Shown: positions 5,913 to 60,963 of the stretch, in pieces
How positions within the stretch are numbered: position 1 is the first letter of the stretch
Layout: each line of letters starts with the position of its first letter
DNA from: Oscillospiraceae bacterium
Lineage (GTDB): Bacteria; Bacillota; Clostridia; Oscillospirales; Ruminococcaceae
Assembly: GCA_016291435.1 (NCBI GenBank)
Contig: JAEEXH010000001.1
Span: 59,661-123,660, forward strand
Length of the DNA: 64,000 nucleotides
Direction of reading: 5' to 3'
Position numbers and translations under genes: made by a program
The notes under the pieces: generated by a model
Told to the model about the DNA's origin: nothing
Databases searched by the model: none
What the model saw: the letters and a program-made list of their open reading frames with translations, nothing else

Positions 5913-7553
5913 TCAGTGATAAATGATCTGCATATTATCGTCAATATGTGCTGCCTTGAGCGTAATATCGGAGACCTGAAGGAATTTCTCCCAGTCCTCC
6001 GAAGCGCTGCCCTTTCCGGCGAGCAGATCGCTGACACGGATGCGGTAAAGATAATCGTTCGGGTCCATCGTTTCGATGTCGCTTCTCCACTGCGCTTCAT
6101 ATTCTCCGTTTTCCAGCTGCGTGTGCGTCACCAGATGTTCGGAATTGCGCTGCATCACATACAGATAATCCCCGCGCAGAAAGCTGTCTGTCTGAGATTC
6201 CATGAAATCCGGCGCCGCGACCGTCTGCACAACACGGCAGTCATAATCACAGAGATACAGCACAAAGTTCGGATCTTCCCCCTCTGCCGGGGTCGAGACA
6301 AACAGCAGATAATCGTCATTCACCGAATAGTCATCCCAGTTCGGGTGTCCCTTGATCCCGGTTCTGTCCAGACGGGTCTCCTCGCCCGTGAACAGGTCAA
6401 GGCGCGTGAGCTTTGTGCCGTTTATGTCGCTGTCAAGCACGAAGCAGGCGTCCTTGCCGAACTGGATATTTGCGTCCATCGCCTGTTTGAGCGTCTTTAT
6501 CTCGAAGCTGTGCAGATCGAGCTGCTTGATGCTGCCGAGGATCAGGCTGTCGCCGTATCCCGCGATCATCCCGTAGGTGCCGCAGTCCCTCGATTCATCC
6601 GGCTCCGGCATGTTTATCGCAAGAATGCCGCCCTTGCCGGTCGCGAGCTCATAGCAGACGATCGCCGAGCCGCGGCAGCACGGCGAGCCTGCAACATCAC
6701 GGTTGGTCGCGTCCAGACCGACAGAGGCAAAGAGACAGCCGCGGTAAAGGATCACATCCACCACAGATGCGGCATATGTTTCATACGGGAATGAGAACCG
6801 CATGAGCTCCTCAATGCGGGTGCCGTCATTTGCATAGCGCAGAACCAGCGGCCCCCCGCCCCAGGAGCCGTCCTCATTGAGCGGCTGGGTGATCATATAG
6901 AGCTGATCGTCATAGCTGATGAAACGCCCCGGTGCATAGGCTTTCGTCGATGCCACGCAGTAGGGATTGCCGTCGTGCAGGCAGTTTGCCCGGGCGCAGA
7001 GCGGCACGCATTCGCCGGTCTCCTTGTCCTGATAATAATAGCAGCTGTGCTCGTTCTGCGCGCGCTGCGGAAAGCTCTCGGTGTTGTCCGGGTCATAGTT
7101 CAGCTCATACGTATCCTGCATGTAGTAAAGGCCGTCCGAGGTCTCTGCAAACCATGCCATCTCGTCATAGCGATAGCGCTGTCCGCCGAGATGATACGGC
7201 GCTGCCGTGCGCGTGTCATCCGTGAGACGGAGCGCCTCCGGCTGCTCCTGCACGCTGACAACTGCCGGTTCATTGCTGCTGCCGCGGTCAAAGATATTGC
7301 CGCCCTGCGAGCCGCGCATTGCGACGGCTGCCGCGATGCCGCCCGCGCCGAGCACTGCCGCCGTGATCGCGGCACCGATCGCGATTTTTCCGATTTTCCG
7401 TTTGTTTTCCCGCTTTTCCATTGTGCGTTTCCCTTTCCGGGATGCTGCTTCGGCACGCTGCTCCCGCACATAGTCCGCGATCATGTCATAATACCTGCGG
7501 TCTGCGTTCTTCACAGCGCGGCGGATCCGTTCCTCCGTGAGCTTCACAGCCAT
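5913..7553 (-). CDS. single-pass membrane sensor paralog P2 (putative anti-sigma of module 1)
   Basis: 546 aa. N-terminal ADRRYYDM motif, TM AAVLGAGGIAAAVAMRG and ectodomain PLCARANCLHDGNPYCVAS. The ATG at 7553 overlaps the sigma stop by 10 nt. Confidence 0.85.
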   Translation of the reverse strand: MAVKLTEERIRRAVKNADRRYYDMIADYVREQRAEAASRKGKRTMEKRENKRKIGKIAIGAAITAAVLGAGGIAAAVAMRGSQGGNIFDRGSSNEPAVVSVQEQPEALRLTDDTRTAAPYHLGGQRYRYDEMAWFAETSDGLYYMQDTYELNYDPDNTESFPQRAQNEHSCYYYQDKETGECVPLCARANCLHDGNPYCVASTKAYAPGRFISYDDQLYMITQPLNEDGSWGGGPLVLRYANDGTRIEELMRFSFPYETYAASVVDVILYRGCLFASVGLDATNRDVAGSPCCRGSAIVCYELATGKGGILAINMPEPDESRDCGTYGMIAGYGDSLILGSIKQLDLHSFEIKTLKQAMDANIQFGKDACFVLDSDINGTKLTRLDLFTGEETRLDRTGIKGHPNWDDYSVNDDYLLFVSTPAEGEDPNFVLYLCDYDCRVVQTVAAPDFMESQTDSFLRGDYLYVMQRNSEHLVTHTQLENGEYEAQWRSDIETMDPNDYLYRIRVSDLLAGKGSASEDWEKFLQVSDITLKAAHIDDNMQIIYH

Positions 7554-8104
7554 CCCTCCTCACTCAAGAATTTCCGCAGCTTTTTGCGGGTGCGCATCAG
7601 CGTGACGGTCACCCGGCTCTGCGAGATGCCGAAGGCTTCGGCGATCTCCCGCGTGCTGCGGTCGTTTCCGTAGTAATGCACAAAGATCATGACAGTCATC
7701 TTCGGGAGCGTCTTCAGAAACCGCCCGACTGCTTCATCCAGAAGCCGCTCCTCCATGAGCTGCTCGATGGAATCGCCTGCCGGCTCCCTGCCGCGGCTAA
7801 GATCGTGGAGCGGGATCTCCGCCTGTCCGCCGCCGCGCTTCTTTGCCTGCTTCTGCTCCGCACGGTTGAGCGAAAGCCGCTTCACCGTCGTGTGCAGATA
7901 GGCGCCGAAGCTCTTCGGGGCTGCGGGCGGGACTGCGCTCCAGACTTGCAGCAGCGCGTCGTTCCAGACCTCCTCTGCGTCCTGCTCGCTGTGCAGAATG
8001 CGCATCGCGAGCTTTTTGCAGGCGCCGCCGTACTGCGCCGTCAGCGCCCTGAGCGCCGATTCATCGCGCTTTTGCAGCAGCGTTAAGATCTGCCTGTCCG
8101 TCAT
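7544..8104 (-). CDS. ECF-type sigma-70 family factor (module 1)
   Basis: 186 aa. Region 2-like DAEEVWNDALLQVWSAVPP...YLHTTVKRLSLNR and a region 4 HTH REIAEAFGISQSRVTVTLMRTRKKLRKFL. Confidence 0.88.
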   Translation of the reverse strand: MTDRQILTLLQKRDESALRALTAQYGGACKKLAMRILHSEQDAEEVWNDALLQVWSAVPPAAPKSFGAYLHTTVKRLSLNRAEQKQAKKRGGGQAEIPLHDLSRGREPAGDSIEQLMEERLLDEAVGRFLKTLPKMTVMIFVHYYGNDRSTREIAEAFGISQSRVTVTLMRTRKKLRKFLSEEGWL

Positions 8105-15267: not shown

Positions 15268-15451
15268 GAATTCGCAATGCGCAATTCGCAGTGCGCAATG
15301 AAGGTGTCGGCTTGCGCCGACGAATTTGGATTGAGCTCTGCCCAACCCTGACAAACAGATTACTTACGCCAAGGGGCTTGGGCGTCAGCCCCATTCATAA
15401 TCATCGCGAAGCGATACCGCCATTGCGCATTTCGCATTGCAAATTGCGCAC
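15268..15451. repeat. MITE-like element with GCGCAATG-type terminal inverted repeats and internal mini-hairpins
   Basis: Left end gaattcgcaatgcgcaattcgcagtgcgcaatg; right end cattgcgcatttcgcattgcaaattgcgc. The core (gtcggcttgcgccgac ... gcccc attcataatcatcgcgaagcgatac) is the reverse complement of the core at 60791-60963. Confidence 0.8.
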
Positions 15452-20122: not shown

Positions 20123-20150
20123 TGACAGGAAACAGGGAAAGTTTCTTACA
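20123..20150 (-). promoter_or_regulatory. ECF-type promoter-like motif TGTAAG-N16-CTGTCA (module 6)
   Basis: Minus-strand reading: TGTAAG aaactttccctgtttc CTGTCA tgtattGTAGAGGG. Confidence 0.5.
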
Positions 20151-20262
20151 ATGCGGAATGCGCAATGGCAGTATCGCTCCGCGATGATGGATCATGGGCG
20201 AAGCCCATTCTGAATCATCGGCGAAAGCCGACACTTTCATTGCGCATTGCAAATTGCACATT
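20150..20262. repeat. short member of the GCGCAATG-TIR MITE-like family
   Basis: gcggaatgcgcaatggcagtatcgctccgcgatgat...gggcgaagccc...ggcgaaagccgacactttcattgcgcattgcaaattgc. Confidence 0.75.
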
Positions 20263-20274
20263 GAGCATTCAATT

Positions 20275-38823: not shown

Positions 38824-39714
38824 TTATGCCTCCTCCTGTGTGCCGCCGCGCCCCTGCCCCGAGACCGTGCCGTGATTTGTGATGCCGGCATCGTAGGTAT
38901 CGAGGAAGTGATGATACTCCTCGCCGCGGTGATAGGAAATGATCGTGTTCAGGTTGACATTTTCGACGCTGCGAAAGATGTTCATGTCAATCGCCGGGCT
39001 CTTTTTGCGGAGCTCCCGGAGCAGGAGCTTGACCTCCTGCCGCTTGGAGCCGCCTGTTTCGCAGGTGACATTCTGCTGCGTGACGCTGCATGCACAGCGG
39101 ATGAAATGCAGGCCGTTATGCTCTGCCCATTTGATAATATCCGCCTCCCGCACCAGATACATCGGGCGGATGAGCTCCATCCCGGCGAAGTTCTCGCTGT
39201 GGATCTTCGGCATCATCGTCTGCACCTGCGAGCCGTAGAGCATACCCATGAGGATCGTCTCGATCACATCGTCGAAATGATGCCCGAGCGCGATCTTGTT
39301 GCAGCCGAGCGACTGCGCGTGCTGATAAAGATGACCGCGGCGCATTCTTGCGCAGAGATAGCAGGGGTTCTGCTCGATCTTATCGACCGCGTGAAAGATG
39401 CGCGTATCGAAGATCTGAACGGGCACGCCGAGCCGCTCCGCATTGTCGATGATCTGCTGCCGGTTCTCGGGGGCGTAGCCGGGATCCATGACGATGTATG
39501 CCGTCTCAAACGGGATCTTGCTGTATCGCTGAAGGCGCTGCATACATTTTGCCATGAGCATGGAATCCTTGCCGCCGGAGATACAGACGGCGATCCTGTC
39601 GCCCGGCTGAATGAGGTCATAGGTACGGATGCCCTTCAGAAATTTTGTCCAGATGCTGCGCCGGAATTTGCCGACAATGGTCTCCTCGATGGCATTCGGA
39701 ATTTCGCGTGCCAT
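38824..39714 (-). CDS. ttcA: PP-loop ATPase, TtcA-like tRNA 2-thiocytidine synthase
   Basis: ATG at 39714 follows AGAGGAGA. SGGKDS PP-loop (VCISGGKDSMLM) and Cys motifs PCYLCARMRRG and CACSV. Confidence 0.8.
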   Translation of the reverse strand: MAREIPNAIEETIVGKFRRSIWTKFLKGIRTYDLIQPGDRIAVCISGGKDSMLMAKCMQRLQRYSKIPFETAYIVMDPGYAPENRQQIIDNAERLGVPVQIFDTRIFHAVDKIEQNPCYLCARMRRGHLYQHAQSLGCNKIALGHHFDDVIETILMGMLYGSQVQTMMPKIHSENFAGMELIRPMYLVREADIIKWAEHNGLHFIRCACSVTQQNVTCETGGSKRQEVKLLLRELRKKSPAIDMNIFRSVENVNLNTIISYHRGEEYHHFLDTYDAGITNHGTVSGQGRGGTQEEA

Positions 39715-39858
39715 AACGTCTCCTCTTTTCACATTGATTTGATAGGTTATAGATACTATTATACACAAAAACCGTTTCTTTGTCAAGGCAGCGCGAGAGA
39801 AAGCGCCCCCGATACACGCAGTACCGGGGGCGCTTGTTCAGTTTGCATGATATGCCGT

Positions 39859-39975
39859 GGTATGCAAAATACCGGGGTATGCACAATACCGGGGTATGCA
39901 CAATACCGGGGTATGCACAATACCGGGGTATGCACAATACCGGGGTATGCACAATACCGTGGTATGCACCATACC
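39859..39975. repeat. tandem repeat: 7 copies of a 17-bp unit, each containing the palindrome GGTAT-N5-ATACC
   Basis: GGTATGCA(A/C)(A/C)ATACC occurs at 39859, 39876, 39893, 39910, 39927, 39944 and 39961, an exact 17-nt period. The five central copies are identical. Confidence 0.95.
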
Positions 39976-39976
39976 G

Positions 39977-42900
39977 TCACCAGCGCCAGTCCTCCCAGAG
40001 CCGTCCGGCTTTTTCCTTCAGCGATTCGCCGCGCTTCTTGAGCATTTCATTCGTTCCGGCAATGCTGATCAGCAGCAGACCCGCGATCAGCAGGAAGCCC
40101 CACCATTGCAGATCCATCTTCGTATGCAGATAGACTGCGAGCACAACCAGGGATACGCCGCCCAGCAGGAACCACTTTTTCTGCTTCACATAGAACGACA
40201 CGATGAAAACTGCCAGCGCACAGATCAGCACGGTCAGGAAGTCTGCCAGCGACTCGGAGAAGATCGCCGACCCGCCGAGCCGCAGCATGCTGTATGCACC
40301 CGCAGCAAAGAGCAGGAAGCCGCCGGTCTCTTGGCCGTAGAGCAGCCGGAGCACGACCGCAAAGCCGAGCAGCGGCAGCAGATGCAGCTTGCCCTCCCAG
40401 TAGGTATCCGTGACATGCAGGAAGGGCTGCATCCAGAAGGCAAGCGTCAGGCAGGCGGCGCAGGCGGTCACAAGCCCCTTGCGCACCGCATCCGTCTTTG
40501 CTTCCCGGATAAAATGTGCGAGGAAGCCCGCCGCGAGCACCGGCACGAAGAAATAGATCCAGCTTTGCTCATCCGCGTGATAGTGTACGGTGTCGGATCC
40601 CACGAGGCGCGCCCAGACCGGGATGAACCCGCCGGTCACCGTCAGCGCATAGGAACGGTATTTCTGCCGCTCGGGCTGCTCCTCCTCGCGCAGCACCCTG
40701 CCGAGATAGGGCAGCAGCAGCGTGAGACCTGCAAAGCAGCAGAGCATAAAGATCACGGCGCCGTGTCTGCCGGCATCGGAATAGCCGCTCCACGGCACAT
40801 GCCCGCGCACCGCCTCCAGCGTCACGATGAGCGCTGTGCAGGAGAGCATCGGGAGCACAAACTGTGTGCGCTTTGTCGTCAGCCACGCAAGCACGCTCAT
40901 GCCGACCGTGAACACCGCAAACAGCGCCGCCCATTCGGCTGCGTTGAGCGTCAGCAGGACGACCGACAGCAGCACTGCGGTCACAGGCGCCACGGCCTGC
41001 ATGACCGCGGGGACCGCATCGCCGCCGACAAAGCTGAGGAGCCCTGCGCGGATCACGATTGCCAGAATGCTGAGTGCAATGATCCAGAGCGCCGTCAGCA
41101 TCCAGACAGTGAAGCTGAAGCGGTGTGCGTCATAGCTGCCGAACATCGCCGCATTGACACAGTACCATGTCGCCTCAAGCACAAACCAGATCGACACGAC
41201 AAAGGACGCGGTGCTGAGCGCTTTGAAGCCGCGGTTTGCAAAGAGCCGCCAGAGCAGCAGCGCCATCGCAGCGGCAAAGAGCAGCAGCGGGAGATACCAG
41301 CCCTCATCGGCAAACAGCTCCGCGAGGAAGGCGGGCACCATCGGCGGGAGCGCCGTCAGACCGAAGAACAGCCTGCGGACGCCGTGAAAGCGCTTTTTCG
41401 TGGTGAAATAGCAGAGCAGTGCAAGCCCGTAGGAAACAAGCGACCAGATCAGCACTGCCTGCGAACTGTAATCGGTGCGGTCCATGATGTTCCATGCGCC
41501 CGCAAAGAGGACTGCGGGGAGCATCACGGCATAGCCGTACTGCGGGATGCCCTTTTGGTCGCGGGCAAAGGCGAGGAACCAGCAGACCGCGGCGATCAGC
41601 AGCAGAATGCCGAGTCCCGCTGCGCAGAAGCCGGGCTGCACCTTCTCAGAGTCAAAGAGCGGGAGCGCCTTCTGCATAACGGCAAAGGCAGCACAGGCGG
41701 CTGCAATCAGGAAGCCGAAATCGGAGAGATGCGTGCGGAATTTCTTTGCGGCGCAGAAAAGCAGGAAGCAGCTAAGATACAGCCCTGCAAGGAGCAGCAC
41801 TTTTCCGGCGTCCAGGAGCCACGGCTGTGCGTGCGCGAAGTCATTGCAGAGCAAGAGCACCTCTGCCGCACAGAGGCATTTGAGGAAGATGTCATCGGTG
41901 CGCAGCGTGAGCCATACGGTCACGGCGATCAGCACGAGCATCACGAAGACGAGCGGGAAATTCGCATTGCAGTCAAACTGTGACAGCAGCGAGACCGCAA
42001 TCAGTGCGCAGCTTCCGATGTGAAAGCCCTTTCTGCACTGCTCCGGCAGGCTGTTCGTCAGCAGCATGACCATAAAGAGCATCGCGCAGGCGGCGAATAC
42101 AAGCCCGCTGCATGCGCCGATCCCCCAGAACTGCCATGCCTTTTCGCCGGCATCGGCAGCATAGAGCGGATCAAACAGACGCCAGAAGCCGAGCAGCGCC
42201 GTCAGCCCGACAGGGATCGCGGTGAAATCCCGGATACGGTCGGTGATGACCGGCGAGAAGAAGGCTGCCGCTGCCAGCAGCGCCGCAATGCCGCAGAGCA
42301 TATAGCTGTCATCCGCAGCAAACAGAAACAGCATGGCGGAGGCATTCACGAAGGCATAGCCGATGCTGAAGGGCTCCAGTGCGCGTGCGATCGGCAGCGG
42401 ACACCAGTCCTTAACCGTGCGCGAGAGATACGAGAGCAGCAGCGCCCAGAAGGAGGAGAGCAGCAGGAGCATTGCATACTGGAAATCGTCCTCGAACACA
42501 TCCTTTGCGAGCAGTGCACGGGCGAAATAGAGGTAGCTGCCCGTGAGTCCGAGCAGGAAGGCAACGCCCCACCCAAGCTGCATATAAATGTGCACGGCAA
42601 TCAGGGCGACGACCGTAAACGACAAAAATGCGAATGCGATCAGCAGATTGTTTGAGGGCCCGCTGAGCCCCTCGCCGAGCAGGTCAAAGCAGCCTGCGCC
42701 CCAGACGGAGATCGGCAGGAAGGCGGCACCGATGACGAAGAACGCCATGCCGGTGCGCTCCAGGCTGAATACCTTTTGTGCCAGCGCAGACGCGCCGAAG
42801 AAGAGCACGCTGCCCGCGGCAAGCGTCGCGAGCTTGCCGGAATTGCTGAAGGATGCCCAGTTCGAGAGGACAAAGAGCAGCCCCGCCACAACGATCAGCA

Positions 42901-43549
42901 CGACGCCGACCGAGAGCATGACCGTGATTGCAGAAATCTGCATCTCCTCGCGGCGCACGGGCGCTGCACCGTCAGGCGGCTGCGGGCGTGTGACCGGCGG
43001 CTGCACAGGCGGTACGGGTGCTGCGGGCGGCACGGGCGGTTCTGTGACCTTTGTCTCTGTATCTGCGGCTGCCGGCTCCGGCACGGGTGCATCCGCCGCA
43101 GGAGACTCCGCTGCCGGGAGTTCTGTCTCCGGAGCTGCCGGTTCTGCGGCAGGCACAGCAGATTCCGTCAGCGGCTGCACCGCAGGCTGAAGCGGCGCTG
43201 CGGGCATGACCTGTTCAGGCGGCACGGCCGGCTCTGCGGGCAGGGCGCCGATCGGGGGCAGCGTACCGATATAGGTCGGCGGCACAAACTGCACGGGTGC
43301 GGCGGGCGCGGTCGGCAGAGTGCCGGGCGTCGGGAGCGCATTCTGCAGCATCCCCTGCGGCGGCATCCCCTGCGGTGTGTTCAGCGGTGCATTCTGCGGC
43401 GGAACAGGGGCTCTCCGCGCGCCGGTGAGGAAATCGCGGAGCGCTGCCTGCGTCTGACGGCGGGCACTGCGCTCCCGCAGCCAGAGAATCAGCAGCACGA
43501 TCGGCGAAACGAGCCACAGAATCCCGATCAGAATGAGGATTGCTTCCAT
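39977..43549 (-). CDS. large polytopic membrane protein with an N-terminal TM and a proline-rich linker of about 190 aa (possibly DUF2339-like)
   Basis: 1190 aa. RBS AAAGGAGG. N-terminus MEAILILIGILWLVSPIVLLILWL, then a P/A/V/Q-rich low-complexity region, then more than 25 hydrophobic segments. Confidence 0.8.
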   Translation of the reverse strand: MEAILILIGILWLVSPIVLLILWLRERSARRQTQAALRDFLTGARRAPVPPQNAPLNTPQGMPPQGMLQNALPTPGTLPTAPAAPVQFVPPTYIGTLPPIGALPAEPAVPPEQVMPAAPLQPAVQPLTESAVPAAEPAAPETELPAAESPAADAPVPEPAAADTETKVTEPPVPPAAPVPPVQPPVTRPQPPDGAAPVRREEMQISAITVMLSVGVVLIVVAGLLFVLSNWASFSNSGKLATLAAGSVLFFGASALAQKVFSLERTGMAFFVIGAAFLPISVWGAGCFDLLGEGLSGPSNNLLIAFAFLSFTVVALIAVHIYMQLGWGVAFLLGLTGSYLYFARALLAKDVFEDDFQYAMLLLLSSFWALLLSYLSRTVKDWCPLPIARALEPFSIGYAFVNASAMLFLFAADDSYMLCGIAALLAAAAFFSPVITDRIRDFTAIPVGLTALLGFWRLFDPLYAADAGEKAWQFWGIGACSGLVFAACAMLFMVMLLTNSLPEQCRKGFHIGSCALIAVSLLSQFDCNANFPLVFVMLVLIAVTVWLTLRTDDIFLKCLCAAEVLLLCNDFAHAQPWLLDAGKVLLLAGLYLSCFLLFCAAKKFRTHLSDFGFLIAAACAAFAVMQKALPLFDSEKVQPGFCAAGLGILLLIAAVCWFLAFARDQKGIPQYGYAVMLPAVLFAGAWNIMDRTDYSSQAVLIWSLVSYGLALLCYFTTKKRFHGVRRLFFGLTALPPMVPAFLAELFADEGWYLPLLLFAAAMALLLWRLFANRGFKALSTASFVVSIWFVLEATWYCVNAAMFGSYDAHRFSFTVWMLTALWIIALSILAIVIRAGLLSFVGGDAVPAVMQAVAPVTAVLLSVVLLTLNAAEWAALFAVFTVGMSVLAWLTTKRTQFVLPMLSCTALIVTLEAVRGHVPWSGYSDAGRHGAVIFMLCCFAGLTLLLPYLGRVLREEEQPERQKYRSYALTVTGGFIPVWARLVGSDTVHYHADEQSWIYFFVPVLAAGFLAHFIREAKTDAVRKGLVTACAACLTLAFWMQPFLHVTDTYWEGKLHLLPLLGFAVVLRLLYGQETGGFLLFAAGAYSMLRLGGSAIFSESLADFLTVLICALAVFIVSFYVKQKKWFLLGGVSLVVLAVYLHTKMDLQWWGFLLIAGLLLISIAGTNEMLKKRGESLKEKAGRLWEDWRW

Positions 43550-60790: not shown

Positions 60791-60963
60791 AAATTCGCAA
60801 TCCGCAATTCGCAATTCGCAATTGCGGTATCGCTTCGCGATGATTCTGAATGGGGCTGACGCCCCAAACCCTTCCTTGCAGGAAAACTCTCATCGGGTTT
60901 GGGCAAAGCCCGTTCTGAATCCGTCGGCGCAAGCCGACACCTTCATTGCGAATTGCGCATTTC
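60791..60963. repeat. MITE-like element of the GCGCAATG-TIR family, inverted orientation relative to 15268-15451
   Basis: aaattcgcaatccgcaattcgcaattcgcaattgcggtatcgcttcgcgatgattctgaatggggctgacgcccc...gtcggcgcaagccgacaccttcattgcgaattgcgcat. Confidence 0.8.

Follow-up and report, generated by a model that had tools for sequence, protein, structure and literature searches.

The 17-bp repeats that lie between a large membrane-protein gene and ttcA are probably an ordinary, young intergenic VNTR (minisatellite) that belongs to only part of one species, is dispensable there and is likely to be near-neutral. Within the window (the whole 64,000-nt stretch of DNA that was analysed), TRF reported a period-17 tandem array at positions 39855–39976 with 7.2 copies, 96% matches, no indels and a score of 216, and the pattern GGTATNNNNNATACC gave exactly seven matches (39859, 39876, 39893, 39910, 39927, 39944 and 39961), all 17 nt apart. 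These results agree with the original prediction, made from the letters of the window, of seven palindromic 17-bp repeats at strict spacing with five identical copies, as the inner five all read GGTATGCACAATACC. The two outer copies had been described as degenerate, which holds to the extent that each has one changed base in the 5-nt centre that forms the loop, but the palindrome arms are intact in both. The proximal unit, with the loop GGTGC, permits a 6-bp stem, and the distal unit has the loop TTTGC. The seven GGTAT-N5-ATACC palindromes found in the window compare with 0.01 expected by chance, and none of 100 dinucleotide shuffles reached seven.

When the whole assembly (3.16 Mb, 155 contigs, 56% G+C) was ranked by tandem-repeat score, the array came first among repeats with a period that is not a multiple of three; the remaining high-scoring repeats of the genome have periods that are multiples of three, like coding repeats. 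The second rank by score among the non-multiple-of-three periods is held by GAGGGAG repeated 18.4 times (7-bp period, 90% match) at positions 126–254 of genome contig C80, near the contig end.

Genomic setting of the array

Both genes that flank the array are on the minus strand, and along the direction of transcription the order is the membrane-protein gene, its TGA, the array, a GC hairpin with a U-rich tail, a promoter and ttcA. In window coordinates, the features are:

39977–43549, minus strand: gene for a 1190-aa polytopic membrane protein, from the ORF list and translation, with its TGA stop codon at 39979–39977
39855–39976, minus strand: 17-bp tandem array, unit on the transcribed strand CGGTATTGTGCATACCC, from TRF, the pattern search and a minus-strand read
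39841–39857, minus strand: degenerate proto-unit CGGCATATCATGCAAAC directly beyond the array, containing the small palindrome GCAT-ATC-ATGC
39793–39835, minus strand: terminator-like hairpin with the tail UUUCUCUC, stem GCGCCCCCGGUAC / GUAUCGGGGGCGC extended by A-U pairs, loop UGCGU
39758–39786, minus strand: sigma-70-type promoter of ttcA, TTGACA and TATAAT with a 17-nt spacer, 12 of 12 matches in a promoter scan
38824–39714, minus strand: ttcA-like gene for a 296-aa PP-loop ATPase (Pfam PF01171, 2.4e-19), with a GAGGAG ribosome-binding site before it

The membrane protein ends in AGRLWEDWRW directly before the stop codon, a C-terminal tail that is conserved genus-wide (AGR[LF]WEDW.W before the stop in congener homologues), and a domain search of the protein gave only a weak, sub-threshold match to DUF2157. 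A single base (39976) separates the TGA from the first palindrome, instead of the 2 nt first described, and with the unit phased as CGGTAT... the array abuts the stop codon. At the opposite end, the ttcA start codon (ATG, 39714–39712) lies 144 nt beyond the last palindrome of the array, as expected from the earlier estimate of about 145 nt. Records from Ruminococcus/Oscillospiraceae give homologues of the ttcA product the name TtcA.

Between the array and ttcA stand a hairpin and a promoter that were absent from the original description. The terminator-like hairpin (39801–39835) has a GC-rich stem of 13–15 bp and folds at -30.2 kcal/mol (z -7.9); a simple terminator scan did not call it, as its tail has only 4 U in 8. 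Because the array lies between the stop codon and this hairpin, it should be part of the 3' untranslated region of the mRNA for the membrane protein. From the end of the array to the ttcA -35 box there are 72 nt, with the -30 kcal/mol hairpin in between, and by this arrangement the putative ttcA promoter is insulated from the array by the terminator-like hairpin.

Copy-number alleles within the species

As the window's exact TtcA was not on record when looked up, we reached related contigs from other samples through members of its cluster with 98–99% identical TtcA. Eighteen other conspecific contigs span the intergenic region, all with the order membrane-protein gene, ttcA, thiF. A comparison of copy number among strains had been proposed with the original prediction, and among these conspecific contigs the number does vary. 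The alleles are listed here with copy numbers that all derive from metagenomes assembled from short reads, a method by which identical repeats can be collapsed:

7 copies: the window; intergenic length 262 nt
3 copies, in three sequence variants: L043, L044, L045, L047 and L048; L046; L050–L052; intergenic length 194 nt
1 copy, the proximal unit GGTATGGTGCATACC only: L057; intergenic length 160 nt
0 copies, with the 24-nt filler CGGCATATACATATCATAACGCCG replacing the units: L041, L042, L054–L056 and L058–L060; intergenic length 166–167 nt

The differences in intergenic length between the alleles that carry units are exact multiples of 17 (262-194 = 4 x 17 and 194-160 = 2 x 17), and the array is missing in 9 of the 18 other conspecific contigs. 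In every allele the hairpin and promoter stand at a constant distance from ttcA, the -35 and -10 hexamers of ttcA are identical, and the ribosome-binding site is unchanged. Thus, of the earlier suggestion of a slippage-prone locus that changes the spacing between the upstream gene and the ttcA promoter, the variable copy number (0, 1, 3 and 7 units in conspecifics) was borne out, but the changed spacing to the promoter was not, with the hairpin and a complete promoter intervening at constant distance. The original view that the array is non-coding also stands: 17 is not a multiple of three, and ORFs crossing the array on either strand would be frame-shifted among the 1-, 3- and 7-copy alleles, so we rejected a coding reading.

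Distances and a tree were built on 1100 nt counted from the start of ttcA, which take in the complete ttcA gene and the beginning of thiF. The clade that contains the window (flanks 98–99% identical) has alleles of 0, 1, 3 and 7 copies, and its sister clade (about 93–96% identical) has the 0-copy allele only. Since the 0-copy filler is common to both clades, it is most parsimoniously the ancestral state. Change at the array is far faster than in the flanks, given that only 4 of 2370 positions distinguish L043 from L046, 2 of them in the 51-nt array and 2 in the other 2319 nt.

To account for these alleles, we propose that a single palindromic unit would have arisen in one clade, replacing the 24-nt filler, and that slippage during replication, or unequal recombination, may then have raised and lowered its copy number. 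Misalignment would be favoured by a hairpin-forming unit and a self-complementary array; as DNA, the self-complementarity of the array puts many out-of-register pairings on offer, and such pairing is the classical substrate of slipped-strand mispairing. Five identical inner units flanked by variant outer ones are the usual signature of recent amplification. Among intergenic VNTRs with hairpin-containing periods, VNTR-105 and VNTR-141 of Wolbachia have been attributed to slipped-strand mispairing (PMC3287509). For the present locus we infer a probable direction of change from 0 copies to 1 to many, slippage as the likely mechanism and an array that is close to neutral.

The origin of the founder unit is a separate matter, as several changes would have to coincide to turn the filler into the first unit, a step that slippage alone does not explain. 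We took the idea of a template switch from earlier work (PMC8794818), and by eye there was no reverse-complement donor nearby. The proto-unit CGGCATATCATGCAAAC that adjoins the array is found with point differences in all alleles, the 0-copy ones included, and from its sequence it may be related to the 17-bp repeat unit. We also tried the inner terminator CCGGTACTGCGTGTATCGG as a relative of the unit; it is alike at 12 of 19 positions, and because both palindromes begin with CCGGTA this was not counted as evidence.

Two further observations concern the locus itself. The 24-nt filler of the 0-copy alleles resembles an expanded, imperfect duplicate of the adjoining proto-unit CGGCATATCATGC, so that local duplication after this stop codon seems to be older. 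In addition, it is a peculiarity of this species that the membrane-protein gene and ttcA lie side by side; elsewhere in the genus (G004, G005, G007, G011 and others) the two are on different contigs with different neighbours, and in L053, whose TtcA is a relative grouped in the same protein cluster at 90% identity, the gene before ttcA is a divergent one of 228 aa.

Unit variation, folding and possible effects on expression

We found seven distinct unit sequences, in which the variable positions are 7 and 8 (in the loop, or centre), 17 (the inter-unit base) and, in one variant, 12 (in an arm); the palindrome arms are therefore intact in all unit variants but one. By our calculation, the difference between 3 of 7 variable non-arm positions and 1 of 10 variable arm positions is not significant (one-sided hypergeometric p ~0.16), which leaves no demonstrable constraint on the palindrome, and because the arms barely vary the units give no covariation. 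As RNA, single units form weak hairpins of -3.4 to -3.8 kcal/mol (z -1.3 at -3.4), with -6.1 kcal/mol for the proximal unit and its 6-bp stem. Taken as a whole, the self-complementary array gives a single long but imperfect hairpin (-48.7 kcal/mol, z -2.2), and array and terminator region together fold at -91 kcal/mol (z -3.6).

The terminator-like hairpin is a different case from the array. In the comparison of the two clades (the window against the contigs L042 and L054–L060), its stem base shows paired changes (GCGC...GCGC versus ATGC...GCAT), and a U-to-C change turns a G-U pair into a G-C pair; the sister-clade version folds at -28.2 kcal/mol. By continuing to fold through paired changes, the terminator looks like a selected, functional structure, unlike the array.

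These data bear on the possibility that the array is a functional RNA element of the 3' untranslated region, whose copy number would tune either the 3'-to-5' degradation of the upstream mRNA or how much transcription stops at the terminator instead of running on into ttcA. Tandem hairpins in the 3' untranslated region had been among the original suggestions, and the position between stop codon and terminator, on the transcribed strand, is as that suggestion needs it. The fold of the array with and without the terminator and the mostly preserved arms among unit variants also speak for such an element, and with a U-tract as weak as UUUCUCUC a modulation of read-through by upstream structure is conceivable. 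Against it, the hairpins of single units are weak, and the terminator hairpin already gives a very stable 3' end. The element is moreover dispensable within the species, missing from half of the other conspecific contigs and from all congeners searched, and this absence argues against an important function. An Rfam scan of positions 39000–41000 (E up to 10) gave no credible family, the best overlap being sodF sRNA with 22.8 bits against a gathering score of 46 (E 0.95). We consider a functional element of this kind unlikely. A more elaborate form, in which each unit lengthens a self-complementary RNA or DNA structure so that copy number sets read-through into ttcA or survival of the upstream mRNA in a strain-tunable manner, is in our judgement less likely still. 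Most likely, the array adds at most some extra secondary structure upstream of the terminator, with little or no function.

Copy number that differs between closely related strains, in an array that changes faster than its flanks, might also be expected of a contingency (phase-variation) switch, in which cells of one population would often gain or lose units by slippage and so alter the expression of ttcA or of the membrane protein. The known contingency repeats are found in reading frames, in core promoters or beside them. Here the array is outside both coding regions, 72 nt separate it from the downstream -35 box, a strong hairpin intervenes, and promoter, spacing and ribosome-binding site are the same in every allele, which makes a switch of this type very improbable.

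Search for the motif elsewhere

An array of sites for a dimeric DNA-binding protein, resembling an operator or iteron array with 17-bp phasing, was the other function originally suggested, and a palindrome of 5 + 5 bp around a 5-bp centre does have the typical geometry of a dimeric site. The proposed search of the genome for further sites near regulator, plasmid or partition genes turned up no other non-coding site of the motif in the 3.16 Mb. With up to two mismatches, only five isolated singletons were found outside the array, and the closest of these (one mismatch) is within a coding region, its translation in a methyltransferase-like frame being GGMHYTS. With any centre, GGTAT-N5-ATACC occurs once outside the array, again in coding sequence; about 2 such matches are expected from the half-site frequencies, and other spacings of the half-sites gave 0–6. 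Given no other intergenic site in the genome, there is no regulon.

Beyond the genome itself, the motif was found in 44 genomes of other species of the genus as isolated matches with 0 or 1 mismatch only, and never as an array. Homologues of the membrane protein across the genus are about 60% identical over the C-terminal 160 aa, with a conserved tail; at 16 congener loci of the homologous gene no array follows downstream, the DNA there being unrelated and usually containing a plain terminator, and ttcA is on other contigs. A general two-unit pattern with 20 specified bases had one match among 185,579 species genomes, in a Bdellovibrionales MAG, and no match in viral contigs; a specific two-unit pattern had no match in JGI metagenome contigs.

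At the single matching locus (L040, OZ241865.1, positions 7520–7600), three to four 17-bp tandem units of GGTATT-N3-AATACC-TT lie in an intergenic region, about 10 nt after the stop codon (7587) of a minus-strand EamA-like membrane-protein gene and about 350 nt upstream of a PhaR-like regulator gene (start 7169). These units share half-sites and period with the window array. The sharing of half-sites is probably a coincidence, because the search pattern required those half-sites.

That an unrelated genome has an intergenic 17-bp tandem of this form could be taken to favour protein binding, but by our calculation about one chance match to the 20-specified-base pattern is expected in 596 Gb, which is what was found. 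The single further match in the window's own genome is coding and within chance expectation, and the motif is a recent arrival in one clade that many conspecific strains are missing, as are all 44 congeners as far as arrays are concerned. Around the array are ttcA, thiF and the membrane-protein gene, and no gene for replication, partition or an adjacent regulator is among them. A protein-binding array, as first proposed, is therefore not supported, and we regard it as highly improbable. Last, although five identical units over 85 bp in a 155-contig MAG may be mis-counted by de Bruijn assemblers, which makes the exact count of seven uncertain, the array itself is not in doubt and an assembly artefact ranks as the remotest of the explanations, because no fewer than 10 independent contigs, which come from different samples and assemblers (Logan, ENA megahit/SPAdes and NCBI MAGs), have the unit tandemly repeated at this position.

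During these searches we also noted short tandem motifs of other kinds dispersed over many loci of the genome, with either a period of about 16 bp (ATTTCATTGCGCAGCA) or a 7-bp unit (AATTCGC / CATTGCG). Within the window they occur at 1246–1304, 1431–1462, 15269–15300, 15421–15450, 20149–20263 and 60792–60823, including the ECF sigma gene array, and elsewhere in the genome on contigs C4, C16, C17, C61, C87, C37, C52, C93 and C149. They look like a family of regulatory or promoter-associated repeats.

Significance

For biology at large the array is of little importance, being one more intergenic VNTR. Its use would be as a strain-typing marker for an uncultured gut or rumen Ruminococcus-like species, based on alleles of 0, 1, 3 and 7 copies together with the unit variants. 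The alleles also form a natural series in which a palindromic unit is born (0 to 1) and amplified (3 and 7) within about 1–2% flank divergence, and this series could serve studies of hairpin-promoted slippage. If it were true that copy number tunes termination or mRNA decay, for which the present results give no support, the array would be a more unusual source of expression diversity; a strain-tunable untranslated region would mean heritable, reversible expression levels set by a repeat outside promoters and reading frames.

Comparison with known systems

Plasmid and phage iteron or operator arrays resemble the array in being direct repeats of about 17–22 bp. Iterons are conserved and are found at replication origins beside rep or par genes, unlike the present array, which is chromosomal, in a housekeeping context, dispensable and without a cognate gene nearby; its neighbours are a membrane-protein gene, ttcA (PP-loop) and a ThiF-family gene, in the same order across conspecifics. 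CRISPR arrays had already been set aside in the original prediction, and correctly so, as there are no spacers: the units abut, with only one variable base between the CGG...ACC cores of successive palindromes.

The contingency loci of Neisseria, Haemophilus and Burkholderia mallei are likewise slippage-prone tandem repeats with strain-variable copy number (PMC1574311, PMC3898611). Their repeats are mostly of 1–8 nt and are found in reading frames or core promoters, where length switches expression (PMC1574311, PMC3898611). The array here is in neither position; it follows a stop codon upstream of a terminator, and its length has no obvious switch effect.

A resemblance in position is offered by the REP and BIME elements of Proteobacteria, which are small palindromes just after stop codons, present in transcripts and sometimes clustered, and which have been proposed to stabilise mRNA 3' ends (PMC3733652, PMC3116915). 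REP sequences, 20–40 bp long and tagged with GTAG or CGTC, are scattered over each genome at tens to hundreds of sites, and their orientation alternates inside a cluster. Unlike these, the array unit has a 15-bp palindrome, is repeated in direct tandem and is confined to one locus rather than dispersed over many intergenic ones, and the unit CGGTATTGTGCATACCC has no GTAG or CGTC tag on either strand.

The features of intergenic VNTRs are all present at this locus: head-to-tail, non-coding units of the class of about 10–100 bp, copy number that varies among strains and an array that changes faster than its flanks. Intergenic VNTRs (minisatellites) of bacteria serve in MLVA typing (PMC3287509). 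Examples are VNTR-105 and VNTR-141 of Wolbachia, which are also non-coding head-to-tail repeats at a single locus, with near-identical units and strain-variable copy number, and whose units hold palindromes thought to promote slipped-strand mispairing (PMC3287509). Compared with these, the unit here is much shorter, 17 bp instead of 105 or 141 bp, and is made up almost wholly of a single small palindrome; the array has an exact place, after a stop codon and before an intrinsic terminator, and is polymorphic for presence and absence within one species.
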